Virus record (IMG/VR): IMGVR_UViG_3300028048_002144
From: a virus
Taxonomy: Duplodnaviria > Caudoviricetes
Strand: one strand, 5' to 3'
Length of the DNA stretch: 64,000 nt
In this document: positions 423 through 63,456 of the stretch, in pieces
Numbering within the stretch: position 1 is the stretch's first letter
Layout: every line of letters starts with the position of its first letter
Position numbers and translations under genes: made by a program
The notes under the pieces: generated by a model
Told to the model about the DNA's origin: nothing
Seen by the model: the letters and a program-made list of their open reading frames with translations, nothing else
The model's database searches: none

Positions 423-610
423 ACATTCTCCTTTCTTTTTAAAAAGCTAATTAGAATATGAAAGATTTTTTAAACAAATTAAGCTAATTTAATTTTGCTC
501 GTGTTTCAAATAGCTTTTAGTAAACTAAAGGTTATTATCTATATTCTACGCTGTAAGAAAACATAAAAATACCCTCTTTACTTATTATTTTGTAAAGAGG
601 GTACTATTAT

Positions 611-1402
611 TTACTCTTCTGCATCTTCTGTAGCGTCAATCGTCTTTTTATAGTTTTTCAGGTATTCAGTTGCAAATGGGACAATTTCCATAGCATTGTC
701 TCTCCATTCGTATTCTTTACCACAATCTGGGCATGTAGTTCTTCTCGTGAAAGAACGGGCCTGTATATAACCATCAATAAGAATTTCAGCACCCTTCTGT
801 AAATGCTCCAGATCTTTATCTGCGTTTTTGCCATAAGATTTAACCCAAGGATAATCTGTATCGACATCATCATTCTGATTTTTAAGACGATATTTTCTCG
901 GTACAGCTATCTGATACTGACAAATACTACCTATCTTCTTATTGACGATTTTAACCTTTTCTGGTTCGGTACATAAGTCTCCAATAATTTTAATATTATT
1001 AGACACTTCTTTTAAAGAATGGAGCATATCAATTGCCTGATCTTTGGTCTTGCATGATTTGATTTTTAATATATTAATAGGCTCAATATATACAATCGTT
1101 CCAGGGGTTGAAAATTCTTTTCCGCATTCTGGGCAAATTGTAGTTTTATTGATTGTTTTAGTTACTAATACGCCCTTAATCTGGATAATATCATTTTCTT
1201 CTATTTCTGCAAGCTGGTTAACTATATCTGTATCCTTAGTCATTACTAACGGAGAGTCTAATCTATTCTTCTTATCATTATCTTCTACTTCTCTATCGCT
1301 TCTTATAACTAAAAGCTGTGTTGTGCCCATAGACATATCTTCTGCAATCCTTGGATCATGCATGTTTATACCCTGTAGAATAACATCATTAAATCTTGCC
1401 AT
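611..1402 (-). CDS. Tandem-OB-fold ssDNA-binding protein with two CxxC zinc ribbons
   Basis: Two SSB-like halves (NDVILQG / NNIKIIGDLC, DTDYPWVKSYGKNA, KGAEILIDGYIQAR), each with CPxCGK. Confidence 0.75.
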   Translation of the reverse strand: MARFNDVILQGINMHDPRIAEDMSMGTTQLLVIRSDREVEDNDKKNRLDSPLVMTKDTDIVNQLAEIEENDIIQIKGVLVTKTINKTTICPECGKEFSTPGTIVYIEPINILKIKSCKTKDQAIDMLHSLKEVSNNIKIIGDLCTEPEKVKIVNKKIGSICQYQIAVPRKYRLKNQNDDVDTDYPWVKSYGKNADKDLEHLQKGAEILIDGYIQARSFTRRTTCPDCGKEYEWRDNAMEIVPFATEYLKNYKKTIDATEDAEE

Positions 1403-1490
1403 TTTTATACCTCGTTAAAATGTATTATAAAATTACTTTCATCTATAAGAAATATGACAGATACCAATTTTTAGGTATCTGCCACACGAG

Positions 1491-2219
1491 TCATCTTACA
1501 TAGAAGTATTTTAAATCGTCTAATCTTAAACAACATAGTCTTCCTAATCCGTTCATTTTATGTGTTTTTTCAAAAGGTATCCTAGCACATCCACAATCTA
1601 TATTTATATAATGCCCTTTGCATCCATGAAACAGACATGTTTCTCTATGTGAATTAACTAAAGGACTTATAGAATGCCCTGCGATTACGGTTTGATGTTT
1701 TCGCTTTTTAAACGAATCAAAACAGCGAACTTCTGAGAAGGGATAATTTCTTTCCCAGAGAGCAGTATGTATATCATCACTATTTAAGTCTTTTATAGTT
1801 TTGATTTCATCATCTTCTATATCTATTGGTGATGAGTGGATTAAGTAATAATCTTTATTATTAACCGTTATTTTAGGAATCACAATCGGCATATTTTCGA
1901 TATAGTCTAAAACACATTCTTTAAGATTATCCGGTAAATCTTCATATTGATCCATAGTAGTTGTTCCACCATTAGATAACCAGAGCATAAAATCTTCTCC
2001 GAAGGCATAGACTTTATACATCATATATTCATGATTCCCCATTAAGCATGTGATATTTGAGAATTTCATTATATAAAGTAACATATCAATAGATTGTGGT
2101 CCCCTATCAATAACGTCACCTATGATATATAAAGTATCATTATTAGTGAAATTTATCGTTTTAAGCATTTTTTTAAATAACTCAAATTGTCCATGTATAT
2201 CTGACATTACATATACCAT
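1491..2219 (-). CDS. Calcineurin-like Ser/Thr protein phosphatase (metallophosphoesterase)
   Basis: SDIHG, GDVIDRG, GNHE, GH and IDCG motifs. Confidence 0.9.
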   Translation of the reverse strand: MVYVMSDIHGQFELFKKMLKTINFTNNDTLYIIGDVIDRGPQSIDMLLYIMKFSNITCLMGNHEYMMYKVYAFGEDFMLWLSNGGTTTMDQYEDLPDNLKECVLDYIENMPIVIPKITVNNKDYYLIHSSPIDIEDDEIKTIKDLNSDDIHTALWERNYPFSEVRCFDSFKKRKHQTVIAGHSISPLVNSHRETCLFHGCKGHYINIDCGCARIPFEKTHKMNGLGRLCCLRLDDLKYFYVR

Positions 2220-2231
2220 AGGAAGTCCTTT

Positions 2232-2597
2232 CTAAAATGTTTTGTCAGACATATGTAATTCTTCCAAATTACCCTGTCTAACAGTTATTGCTCGTGATAT
2301 AGCTTGATATGATAGTTTTAATGAAGATATTATATCGTTTACTGCATCTCTTTTATCCATAAGAATAGTTTTCTCTTCTTTATTTCCTAACCTTGCAGCT
2401 TCATGTACTTCTCTTCGTAAAAACATCAGCAAAGTATTCAGGTACTGATAATTTCTGGCACAAATTAGCATGACCTTTGCAGCTTCTTCAGCTTCCTCTA
2501 TAGTTTCTATATGTACAGGAATATTTACAGAGAATTCTTTAATAAGATATTCAAAGAAATCTATGTTATCCATATTAATTAATTTGTCCATTCTCAT
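2232..2597 (-). CDS. Hypothetical helical protein
   Basis: ORF; start moved to ATG 2597 behind AAGGAAGG, which avoids overlap with recD2. Confidence 0.6.
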   Translation of the reverse strand: MRMDKLINMDNIDFFEYLIKEFSVNIPVHIETIEEAEEAAKVMLICARNYQYLNTLLMFLRREVHEAARLGNKEEKTILMDKRDAVNDIISSLKLSYQAISRAITVRQGNLEELHMSDKTF

Positions 2598-2610
2598 ATA
2601 AACACCTTCC

Positions 2611-61519: not shown

Positions 61520-61591
61520 AAGGGCCTCCTTTCTAATAAATCTATAATTATGAAAAAAGAAGTCGGATAGCATTCACTATCCGATTTCTTC

Positions 61592-61828
61592 TTATTCTTC
61601 ATCTTCTGATCCAGGCGTTTCTTCGGTTTCTTTGATTTCAATATTTACAGCACATGTATTTCCATTGTATTCACCCACATCAAATTCTACTTCTGGTTTC
61701 TTTAAGATATCTTTTCTCTCTGGCTTACTTTTAAATGCGTGAATATTGAAAAAGATAAGCTTATCGTCTTCTGACTTAATAAAGCCATATCCTTTTGCTT
61801 TGTTATAACTCTTAATTCGTCCTAACAT
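61592..61828 (-). CDS. Cold-shock domain protein
   Basis: GRIKSYN..KGYGFI, IFF. Confidence 0.85.
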   Translation of the reverse strand: MLGRIKSYNKAKGYGFIKSEDDKLIFFNIHAFKSKPERKDILKKPEVEFDVGEYNGNTCAVNIEIKETEETPGSEDEE

Positions 61829-61842
61829 ATATCTATCCTTTC

Positions 61843-62937
61843 TTACAATGTAATCACGGTATCGTTGATGGAAATTTCTCCTTCAGCAGGAAGAACAATA
61901 CATCTCTTGCCATCTACTATTTTTACACTTAAATTGTCACTATACTCTAATGGAATAGTGATGGTTGAATTTGCACTCTTGATCTTGATGTTTTTAGTAT
62001 TAATCAAAGCATTTACCGACAAATCCTTATCTGTAAATCTCTTATCATATTCCTTTTCGATATCATTTCTATCACTGTCTGAAATATCGCTATTTCTAAT
62101 AATATCTATGAATTCTTCTTTCGTTACTCTGCCTTCAATGTTATCTTCATTGATCTTATCGCTTAATTCGTTTAGCATTGAAAGTGCACTATCTACACTC
62201 TTATTATTCTTAAAGGTATATGAGAAGAAACTCTTTTCCTGCTCTGGTTCAACAATTTCTCTACAAGTAAGAGCATTTAGAAGATTATTATCTACTTCCT
62301 TTTTGGAGTAATAAAGCACAGTTTCTGTATCAACCATTCTATCTGTAAATGCAGGGTATAAGAATCCATGCATAGGTGGTTTTACAATCCAGTTTCTTAA
62401 CGCTTCGTCAAAATCCATTTCTTTATTATCAAAAGCAAGATCTGCCTTCTGCAGCTTAACTGGGCAAATTACACAGTTAAAGAATTCATATGTACCATCT
62501 GAAAATTCAAATGATTTTACATTATCTGATGTTTTCATCGGGTAGTCATATACATTCGTCATTAGAAGAATGCAGTAATTTTCTGGATAACTAATATTCT
62601 TTATCAGCTCATTAAAGAACATTTCTACTAATGTATTAAAATCGCTATCAGCACTTCTTTCACCAGCAATTTTTAACATACATTCCTTCATATCATTCTT
62701 CTCTGCAATATCTGTATTAAACTGCAAATTATGAAGGTTCTTTCCGAACTTTCCACTTAGATCTTTCTTGAAGATTGCACTATACTTATGCAGGAGTTCA
62801 TCGGTCATAGAAATAGTCTTTGAGTGCGTAAAAGCTAAAACCTTTCCTTCACTATTAATATATGCTCCATGCAATGATCCAAGCATTCCTTTAACGCTAA
62901 ATGTCTTCTTTACTTCCAAAAGTTCTTTTCTGTTCAT
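61843..62937 (-). CDS. DUF4317-family protein
   Basis: MNRKELLEVKK, YDYP.KTSD, ICPVK, GFLYPAFTDR..D..LYY. Confidence 0.8.
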   Translation of the reverse strand: MNRKELLEVKKTFSVKGMLGSLHGAYINSEGKVLAFTHSKTISMTDELLHKYSAIFKKDLSGKFGKNLHNLQFNTDIAEKNDMKECMLKIAGERSADSDFNTLVEMFFNELIKNISYPENYCILLMTNVYDYPMKTSDNVKSFEFSDGTYEFFNCVICPVKLQKADLAFDNKEMDFDEALRNWIVKPPMHGFLYPAFTDRMVDTETVLYYSKKEVDNNLLNALTCREIVEPEQEKSFFSYTFKNNKSVDSALSMLNELSDKINEDNIEGRVTKEEFIDIIRNSDISDSDRNDIEKEYDKRFTDKDLSVNALINTKNIKIKSANSTITIPLEYSDNLSVKIVDGKRCIVLPAEGEISINDTVITL

Positions 62938-62949
62938 AAAAAATCCTTT

Positions 62950-63360
62950 CTAAAATTCTGATACAATAATTCCATAACGGTCTAGCATCATCTTTTTCTT
63001 GATCTTAAAAATGCTATATGCTGCACCTTTTTTATATCCTTTTACGTCTTCTACAATTTCTTCATAAGTTCCATCTTCGTTTTTCTTTTCATAAACAAAA
63101 TCAGCAATATAACTTACGCTTCTTTCTTGTAGTTTTAACTTCTTTTGTCCCTTCTTAGGTCCTTTCTTATAAACTTCATCGATAGGTATATACTGATTAG
63201 GAATTAGTTCGTATGGAACCTGTAGTTTTAAGGCTCTAATTTGTCCTTTCTCGGCCTGCTCCTTTAGATCGAGGTATCTTTCAGCTTCTTTAGAGGAATC
63301 GAATGTGAGACCATCTACAATGGTTTTACGAGCCTTATATTTGTTTCCTTTTCTCGCCAC
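62950..63360 (-). CDS. DUF1064-family PD-(D/E)XK nuclease
   Basis: NKY..K..DG..FDS..EA.RY, LQV.YEL, YIADFVY, VEDVKG. Confidence 0.88.
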   Translation of the reverse strand: MARKGNKYKARKTIVDGLTFDSSKEAERYLDLKEQAEKGQIRALKLQVPYELIPNQYIPIDEVYKKGPKKGQKKLKLQERSVSYIADFVYEKKNEDGTYEEIVEDVKGYKKGAAYSIFKIKKKMMLDRYGIIVSEF

Positions 63361-63456
63361 AATATCACTTCTTTCTATATTTTATTTTTATTGCTACATT
63401 AAATATGACTGAAATTCTTTTTTTCGTTTATTTTTTATACAAAAAAGCCCTGGGAA

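Follow-up and report, generated by a model that had tools for sequence, protein, structure and literature searches.

A recurrent CATATT box as a candidate single-element promoter class in a phage-plasmid-like element of the bovine gut

Analysis of the window, the whole 64,000-nt stretch of IMG/VR virus record IMGVR_UViG_3300028048_002144 (Caudoviricetes) studied here, revealed an 8-bp box, (G/T)TCATATT, at many operon starts of a Firmicutes phage-plasmid-like element whose genes lie almost uniformly on the minus strand. A first-pass annotation of this DNA had listed 31 copies, written AATATGA(C/A) on the plus strand, and had attributed them to one dedicated sigma factor or regulator; the sequence was verified on the plus strand at every one of the 31 positions. 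Related elements carry their own versions of the box at corresponding operon starts, and we propose that it is the core of a promoter lacking a -35 element, probably read by host core RNA polymerase with a sigma factor that the element encodes.

Placement and anatomy of the box in the window

Genes were called crudely as longest open reading frames (ORFs), which left 7,989 nt (12.5%) of the window non-coding and 87.5% coding, and background expectations came from dinucleotide shuffles (n = 100) and from Markov models of order 0 to 3 trained on the same non-coding DNA. In the comparison with background that had been set beforehand as the test, AATATGA(C/A) occurred 41 times on the two strands, as against 19.0 +/- 3.9 in the shuffles, with 0 of 100 reaching 41. 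The copies divide into 31 on the plus strand, the sense orientation for the almost uniformly minus-strand genes, and 10 on the minus strand. Non-coding DNA holds 26 of the 31 gene-oriented copies, where the Markov models predict 0.7-2.2, and only three in the opposite orientation, which bears out the earlier description of the box as mostly intergenic. TCATATTA is the top intergenic 8-mer (18 copies), outranking Shine-Dalgarno words, and the intergenic counts of GTCATATT, TTCATATT and any xTCATACT are 17, 12 and 2, respectively. The five copies called as coding (10500, 32085, 49864, 54261 and 61010) lie in over-extended ORF calls or are followed by an in-frame or downstream start with its own Shine-Dalgarno sequence. 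The motif is present in 26 of 51 upstream gaps of at least 40 nt and in 2 of 34 shorter gaps, so that the earlier wording, that it precedes most transcription units, is roughly right. Many motif-free gaps lie inside a split nrdD gene or ahead of spurious small ORFs; split nrdD and mobile IscB-like genes with an RNA of their own account in part for the long motif-free stretches.

Alignment of the 31 sites in gene orientation gave the consensus aaTCn-(G/T)TCATATT-(A/T)5-T-R-g-a, with information only from -5 to +16. The hexamer CATATT is found in 31 of 31 sites, T occupies motif position 13 in 27 of 31 and a purine follows at position 14 in 30 of 31, a sequence signature of a transcription start. 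We read CATATT as a putative -10 hexamer and the T-R pair as the predicted start site, which puts three invariant bases, C, A and T, at -12, -11 and -7, respectively; the last two are those that every sigma-70-family -10 element needs. The base at -14 is G in 19 of 31 sites (G-class, GTCATATT) and T in twelve (T-class, TTCATATT). Because the variable G/T falls at -14, part of the G-class sites fit the extended -10 pattern TGn, and eight of the 19 read TG-N-CATATT (preceding letters atctG, ttctG or aactG); extended -10 promoters can do without a -35 element. The hexamer continues as CATATTA in 21 of the 31 sites. The motif starts ~40-97 nt ahead of the start codon, close to the distance first reported, and the leader, counted from the predicted +1 (position 14) up to the start codon, is mostly 26-42 nt long (median 31 nt).

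The earlier observation that no TTGACA-type -35 accompanies the box also held. No informative column lies further upstream and no -35 element is conserved among the 31 aligned sites; none of AC, AAC, ATA, TTA, TTG and GAA occurs at any single position in four or more sites of either class; and sigma-70-type hexamer pairs are not enriched (91 observed versus 107 in shuffles, 113 versus 109 and 79 versus 96). A sigma-K-like 'AC' or ECF-like 'AAC' -35 (ECF, extracytoplasmic function) was considered and rejected, as a few G-class sites have AAAAC 11-14 nt upstream at a variable position, with a spacing that matches none known. TAGA was likewise rejected as a -10 hexamer, as 10 of 31 sites would have G as the second base and the sixth is not T.

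G-class sites (n = 19) stand mainly ahead of backbone genes; sites and genes are on the minus strand unless stated, and a position weight matrix (PWM) score and a leader length were computed for motif sites. They precede an SSB-like/zinc-ribbon gene (site 1451-1458, gene 611-1402), two RecD-like helicase genes (5105-5112 and 2611-5064; 7240-7247 and 5139-7205), a topoisomerase gene (14087-14094 and 11649-14054) and a UvrD-like helicase gene (20538-20545 and 18505-20502), and the site at 10500-10507 heads an operon that runs from 10454 through an S26 peptidase gene and the gene for the actin-like protein ParM/ALP to 7735-8391. Other G-class sites precede ORF 23711-25498 (25588-25595, with a leader of 83 nt), ORF 25664-26812 (26846-26853), ORF 28133-28477 (28541-28548, just past a terminator at 28586-28560), the DUF975 gene 28621-29304 (29388-29395, just past a terminator at 29431-29405), a 61-codon ORF at 45478-45663 (45697-45704), ORF 49565-49822 and the downstream HD-domain gene (49864-49871), ORF 56160-56981 (57029-57036), ORF 60459-60959 (61010-61017), the short ORF 60925-61158 (61218-61225) and the genes for DUF1064 (62950-63360) and DUF4317 (61843-62937), both behind the site at 63402-63409. 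The two copies described earlier as flipped do face plus-strand genes with the same geometry: 20591-20598 (plus strand, PWM 21.6) precedes ORF 20618-20965, and 47222-47229 (plus strand) precedes a 62-codon ORF starting at 47266 with a leader of 30 nt.

The T-class sites (n = 12) sit in a standard unit of ~95 nt consisting of a hairpin, a T-run, an A-tract, the motif, a TAGATTTTT leader, GAAAGGAG and ATG. The best PWM score in the window, 25.8, belongs to the module at 21458-21465, ahead of ORF 21031-21420; the site at 455-462 scores 22.5 and precedes ORF 3-422 with a leader of 26 nt. Five further modules lie just past terminators: 39394-39401 (terminator 39446-39417), ahead of the first nrdD piece; 40175-40182 (40234-40201), ahead of ORF 39472-40137; 52640-52647 (52693-52665), ahead of a LigA-like gene at 50360-52606, a ligase call made by eye and not by Pfam; 53241-53248 (53292-53265), ahead of a short ORF; and 57102-57109 (57156-57127), which forms a tandem pair with the G-class site at 57029, 73 nt upstream of it. 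The others precede ORF 40239-40916, a paralogue of 39472-40137 (40953-40960), ORF 44479-44901 (44939-44946), ORF 46725-47078 (47113-47120) and the internal start at 54227 of a C39-like peptidase ORF (54261-54268); the site at 50139-50146 lies ahead of a short ORF from ~50084, and its target is uncertain. Across the window, terminator-like hairpins outnumber those of shuffled sequence 2.5-3 times, and many of them stop only a few bases short of the motif.

A few copies depart from this arrangement. The G-class copy at 23674-23681, ahead of ORF 21525-23600, is directly followed by a hairpin and T-run (23669-23642), which makes its function doubtful or points to an attenuated or 5'-structured leader; this GTCATATT either occurs by chance between a stop codon and the terminator that goes with it or serves as a promoter whose leader is structured or attenuates transcription. 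The GTCATATT copy at 30675-30682 has poor flanks (PWM 9.5), lies upstream of a sigma-A-like promoter of the toxIN locus and is probably outside the promoter class. A one-base variant, GTCATATA (45464-45471), precedes the SSB gene at 45017-45418. In one metatranscriptome run, available as contigs only, a few contigs identical to the window lie inside transcription units and two end 14-24 nt short of a predicted start, including one (45365-45676) that ends 14 nt short of the predicted +1 of the site at 45697; because contigs do not reveal where an RNA ends and could stem from carried-over DNA, we count these data as no evidence.

Versions of the box in related elements

Megablast of 20 kb of the window against plasmid and phage collections gave no match, an exact 42-mer from the window was absent from three contig collections (genome, viral and metagenome), and a single-protein search of IMG/VR with the window ParM gave no match. 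In public sequencing runs, the window sequence occurs in bovine gut metagenomes, with relatives ~91-93% identical in other bovine studies. The window ParM is ~40% identical to the ParM proteins of Butyrivibrio pCY360, Ruminococcus pRUMAL01 and MT835474, an 83-kb partial fecal 'Bacteriophage sp.' record (loci L128/L129 in the numbering of related-element loci used below). A ParM profile search added 80 loci, many on contigs of 100-350 kb, and also reached genome bins of Acetatifactor, Blautia, Fusicatenibacter and other Lachnospiraceae. Scanning IMG/VR for the pattern ATCTKTCATATTNNNNNTAGA was not useful, as it returned single chance matches only and the one seemingly dense locus (L029) was coding sequence.

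Intergenic CATAYT occurs 4-8 times per kb in all gut and rumen elements with a ParM 40-60% identical to that of the window, as compared with ~2 per kb in their own coding DNA. More distant relatives, including pCY360 and pRUMAL01, have 0.4-1.8 per kb of intergenic DNA, and pCY360 showed no CATAYT enrichment. A genome-wide comparison was possible in the Acetatifactor metagenome-assembled genome (MAG), where the pattern TDTCATATTAW has 60 matches versus 26 for the reversed control, 32 of them on six contigs, and where intergenic CATAYT reaches 4-7 per kb on element contigs versus 0.8-3.2 per kb on chromosomal contigs.

Each lineage has its own version of the box. The window, L131 and the Acetatifactor MAG use T(G/A/T)TCATATT; L139/L137 use TCTGACATATT, L141 uses ACAGACATATTA, L144/L147 use ATCATACATATTAT, L204 uses (T/A)ACATACTAT, the MT835474 group uses aaaaATCATACT, L182 uses TGGCATACTT and L150/L151 use GCATACT. 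The A at -11 and the T at -7 are kept in every relative's version, and each lineage has near-fixed bases at -13 and -8, where bases were counted only at sites with a ribosome-binding site downstream. The base at -13 is T in the window (23 of 25 sites) and the Acetatifactor element (34 of 38), A in L139 (7/7), L141 (10/11) and L147 (12/12), and G in L182 (7/7). The base at -8 is T across the clade of the window and C in MT835474 (28/30), L182 (7/7) and L151 (7/7). In intergenic DNA of MT835474, ATCATACT occurs 22 times and any xTCATATT twice.

These versions track the ParM tree, a quick one built with a short search and SH-aLRT support only, in which the window pairs with L131 (support 100) within a clade (support 95) that contains L141, L140, L137 and L139, all of them CATATT users. 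The versions also stand at orthologous operon starts. A promoter orthologous to that at 10500, ahead of the ParM operon, is found in L131, L139, L144, L182 and MT835474, each with its own version of the box; L131 is syntenic with window positions 611-14054 at only 32-58% protein identity and still has TCTGTCATATTAA ahead of the ParM operon. In MT835474 the starts of the topoisomerase gene (41405, orthologous to the site at 14087), the ParM operon, the SSB gene (82914, orthologous to that behind the 45464 variant) and the DUF4317 gene carry the version of that element. A CATAYT core common to the family with lineage-specific flanks is the main new result of this sequence comparison. Concerted changes within one element that differ between elements point to a recognition factor travelling with the element, and versions that follow the ParM tree at orthologous operon starts favour an element-encoded sigma factor over a host one.

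Two further boxes were seen in relatives. In MT835474, nine of 26 intergenic ATCATACT sites (e.g. 4341, 11039, 30876 and 41405) also have a box cTTATATgGAAAGc ~22 nt upstream, which may be a second regulator site or mark a promoter subclass and has no counterpart in the window. In L004/L005, more distant IMG/VR contigs of ~200 kb, a different recurring box, aTATACTGTTAT, lies 4-6 nt before a normal TATAAT; its variable spacing makes it look more like an operator next to a sigma-A -10 element.

Sigma genes and the factor that may read the box

The search of the window for sigma genes found one, a fusion in which an ECF-type sigma (regions 2 and 4) runs in frame into a transmembrane segment and a ~400-residue C-terminal domain (30849-32804, minus strand); the other window ORFs gave no sigma, regulator or polymerase signal. 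A G-class site (32085-32092) lies within this 651-codon ORF and is followed by AAAGGAGA and an in-frame ATG at 32036, where the membrane and C-terminal part begins, suggesting that the C-terminal part could be made alone. The 5' region of the gene has no motif and carries a TGCAAC-type box instead, and tblastn found no homologue of the fusion in MT835474 or in 20-40 kb stretches of four other relatives.

Relatives have sigma genes of other kinds. Weak matches to sigma region 2 were found in pCY360, pRUMAL01 and two IMG/VR contigs of ~200 kb, and a profile built from these matches identified a 311-codon ORF in MT835474 (E = 6e-7; E = 1e-9 for a sigma-70 superfamily model) that is preceded by aaaaATCATACT and a short leader ORF. 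Homologues of this sigma-like protein are encoded on the contigs that carry ParM in a Blautia MAG (332 aa, E = 5e-115) and in a rumen Lachnospiraceae MAG and, in the Acetatifactor MAG, on a separate contig, C127 (299 aa, E = 7.5e-33), where an adjoining gene carries ttctatCATATTaaatgta. NCBIfam scores gave the sigmas of the relatives no clear affiliation. In the Acetatifactor operon (L217 2400-2800, minus strand; G003:C127) the sigma-like gene lies behind a leader ORF, and a LexA-type box of the form GAAC-N4-GTTC (GAACAAGTGTTC) precedes and sits on the sigma-A-like promoter of that leader ORF (TTGCTA-17-TATAAT). The regulon of this relative may therefore be induced by DNA damage, as is that of SigN of plasmid pBS32; in the window itself the LexA pattern occurs once, by chance, within the SSB gene. 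Short RpoD-like sigmas (281-292 aa, regions 2-4, E ~1e-65 to RpoD models) were also seen a few kb from ParM in L201 (621-1463), L196, L190 and L153, and that of L201 has an altered -10 recognition helix, WINQSMTR, whose sigma-A counterpart we take to be WIRQAITR.

We infer a promoter class that serves replication, segregation and accessory genes from where the copies lie, their strand, their constant geometry, the terminators next to them and their retention at orthologous operon starts. We give a probability of about 60% to the reading in which the box is a single-element promoter without a -35, used by host core polymerase with an element-encoded sigma, and in which most operons form one regulon. 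KTCATATT-N5-TR would be the promoter core, with CATATT as the -10 hexamer and transcription starting at the purine 7 nt past the hexamer to give leaders of ~30 nt. The host core RNA polymerase would act with a sigma of the sigma-70 family that has a preference for C at -12. This factor, most likely a product of the element, would be distinct from the ECF sigma of the window, and most operons of the element would be regulated together, separately from host sigma-A promoters. The part of the first-pass proposal that foresaw a dedicated promoter class is thus supported, and the part that offered a host sporulation sigma as its reader is disfavoured.

The use of an element-owned sigma to steer host polymerase to a private promoter class is a well established strategy, and the closest plasmid case is SigN of pBS32. 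SigN (ZpdN) of this Bacillus subtilis plasmid recognizes bipartite promoters with a TTTACG -35 and a GATATAA -10 (Burton et al. 2019, PMC6751061). The likeness lies in a large low-copy element whose own sigma sends host RNA polymerase to a class of promoters essentially confined to the element, and in the LexA-type box on a sigma-A-like promoter of the sigma operon, at PsigN1 as in the Acetatifactor MAG; by contrast, the proposed promoters have one box without a -35, and SigN controls a limited set of genes linked to cell death, while the motif here heads most backbone and accessory operons. The closest promoter architecture is that of phage phiEco32, where the middle and late promoters of gp36 consist of a single element, tAATGTAtA, with the start 6-8 bp downstream and no -35, and where relatives conserve promoter positions while sequences differ (PMC8948821), as in the family described here. 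Nevertheless, phiEco32 is a 77-kb lytic coliphage with six promoters of one temporal class, whereas the element studied here is phage-plasmid-like, belongs to Firmicutes and has ~30 sites in 64 kb, and gp36 lacks region 4, which the sigma-like proteins of the relatives match. The late promoters of phage T4 (TATAAATA) also consist of a single -10-type element without a -35 and are read by a very divergent phage sigma, gp55, which needs gp33 and the sliding clamp as well.

Several points weigh against this reading. The box equals the clostridial mother-cell -10 box, so a host factor could read it, and CATATT keeps the two bases most important to sigma-A. The metatranscriptome contigs are silent on RNA ends, and the starts are predicted from sequence. 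Finally, the sigmas near ParM vary among relatives, some being RpoD-like and others divergent, and sigma types could not be matched cleanly to motif versions across relatives, of which too few have both.

A broader proposal, which we put forward only tentatively and regard as rather doubtful, is that a clade of Lachnospiraceae phage-plasmids (100-350 kb, gut and rumen) shares a common CATAYT-N5-YR promoter whose lineage-specific bases at -13/-14 and -8 co-evolve with a private sigma, giving orthogonal channels that insulate each element from its host and from co-resident relatives. It is also possible that such a private sigma owes its -10 specificity to descent from, or convergence with, the mother-cell sigmas.

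Among the alternatives, the one that survives best, if unlikely, is that the motif is recognized by a sporulation sigma of the host, be it sigma-E or sigma-K of the mother cell or sigma-G of the forespore, in which case the element would be expressed mainly in sporulating cells. Lachnospiraceae include spore formers, and the hosts of related elements are binned as members of this family (Acetatifactor, Blautia, Fusicatenibacter). As the first-pass annotation had noticed, the -10 likeness is real: in Clostridioides difficile CATATTAT is termed a canonical mother-cell -10 box, and sigma-K uses CATATAAT with a minimal 'AC' -35 (Saujet et al. 2013, PMC3789822), to be compared with CATATTA(A/T) here and with CATATTA at 21 of the 31 window sites. 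However, no AC or ATA-type -35, expected 15-18 bp upstream at sporulation promoters, stands at a fixed spacing from the box, the genes behind it belong to replication, partition and nucleotide metabolism and not to sporulation, and relatives encode their own sigmas. Bases at -13 and -8 that are near-fixed but differ from lineage to lineage are, moreover, hard to square with a sigma conserved from Bacillus to Clostridium.

Slightly less probable again is that the sites are weak extended -10 promoters of host sigma-A, with no private factor involved. Several features suit sigma-A: all 31 sites have A at -11 and T at -7, 19 of the 31 have G at -14, several as TG, and extended -10 promoters do not require a -35. 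Yet T at -12 would serve sigma-A equally well or better, whereas C is invariant here and family-wide; the T-class sites do without the G; the lineage-specific base at -13 plays no part in sigma-A recognition; and genuine sigma-A-type promoters on the element look canonical, including that of toxIN.

We think it improbable that the motif is an asymmetric operator of an element-encoded global repressor or activator, comparable to the C1 operators of phage P1, with the true promoters overlapping it. A dispersed, oriented box of 8-13 bp at many operon starts would fit such a regulator, and MT835474 and L004/L005 show extra upstream boxes that resemble regulator sites, but no sigma-A-like -35/-10 pair stands in fixed register around the box, such pairs are not enriched, and a Y-R pair at a fixed 5 nt with a steady leader of ~30 nt suits a start site better.

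There is little to recommend the ECF-type sigma of the window as the reader. It is the sole sigma gene in 64 kb and has a motif inside its ORF, but ECF sigmas are without region 3 and as a rule depend on a -35 box, which the sites do not have, and this requirement, the motif-free 5' region and the missing homologue in the relatives searched make it a poor candidate. Least probable of all is an element-encoded non-canonical RNA polymerase, as used by the large phages AR9 and phiKZ, for which the many large window ORFs without a Pfam match leave room but against which stand the absence of a DxDGD-type two-barrel polymerase motif from every window ORF, the sigma-70-family signature of A-11 and T-7 and the sigma-like proteins, not polymerase subunits, encoded by relatives.

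If the proposed element-encoded sigma and its single-box promoters prove correct, almost all genes of a large and widespread family of gut and rumen elements would depend on one switch, a private sigma and a short recognizable box, and the box would allow direct annotation of operon starts on these elements, whose annotation is poor. The LexA-type box at the sigma operon of one relative would provide a testable model of induction, and the lineage versions would represent natural orthogonal promoter-sigma pairs for anaerobic Firmicutes.

Other features of the window

The toxIN locus (29706-30602, minus strand) is complete, with a ToxN match to Pfam at E = 3e-32 and 3.1 perfect 38-nt toxI repeats at 30391-30507. 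Its promoter, upstream of the toxI repeats, is one of the few canonical sigma-A-type promoters ahead of a gene (TTGACA-17-TAATAT at 30602-30574, minus strand), as the first-pass annotation had said.

The anaerobic ribonucleotide reductase gene nrdD (33400-39400, minus strand) is in at least three pieces (38604-39377, 35664-35972 and 34007-34810), and the motif does not recur beyond the site at 39394 down to ~33 kb. The gaps hold two paralogous ORFs of 313-325 codons that resemble homing endonucleases (37559-38500 and 36132-37109); no group I or group II intron was found in the nrdD region at Rfam gathering thresholds. The PAPS-reductase-like genes at 41067-41822 and 45733-46629 have no motif, and their G+C-richer upstream regions (41823-41950 and 46630-46760, minus strand) look structured, with no match to Rfam.

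Two RRXRR+HNH (IscB-like) genes (14525-15766 and 16969-18219, minus strand) both lack the motif of the element, and the second is accompanied by a full HEARO RNA (RF02033, 114 bits) at 18283-18544 that extends into the 3' end of the UvrD-like gene.

The terminator-promoter-ribosome-binding-site unit coincides with spots where the gene content of related elements differs, which hints at a shuffling of accessory genes. Within window positions 39300-59299, contig joints of bovine-gut relatives fall at such terminator-promoter units (39413>40197, 44922>53240, 47140>52610 and 44466>44930), and one bovine-gut relative has only one of the tandem paralogues 39472-40137 and 40239-40916. Gene cassettes may recombine at the standard units, or the joints may reflect repeats in the assembly graph.

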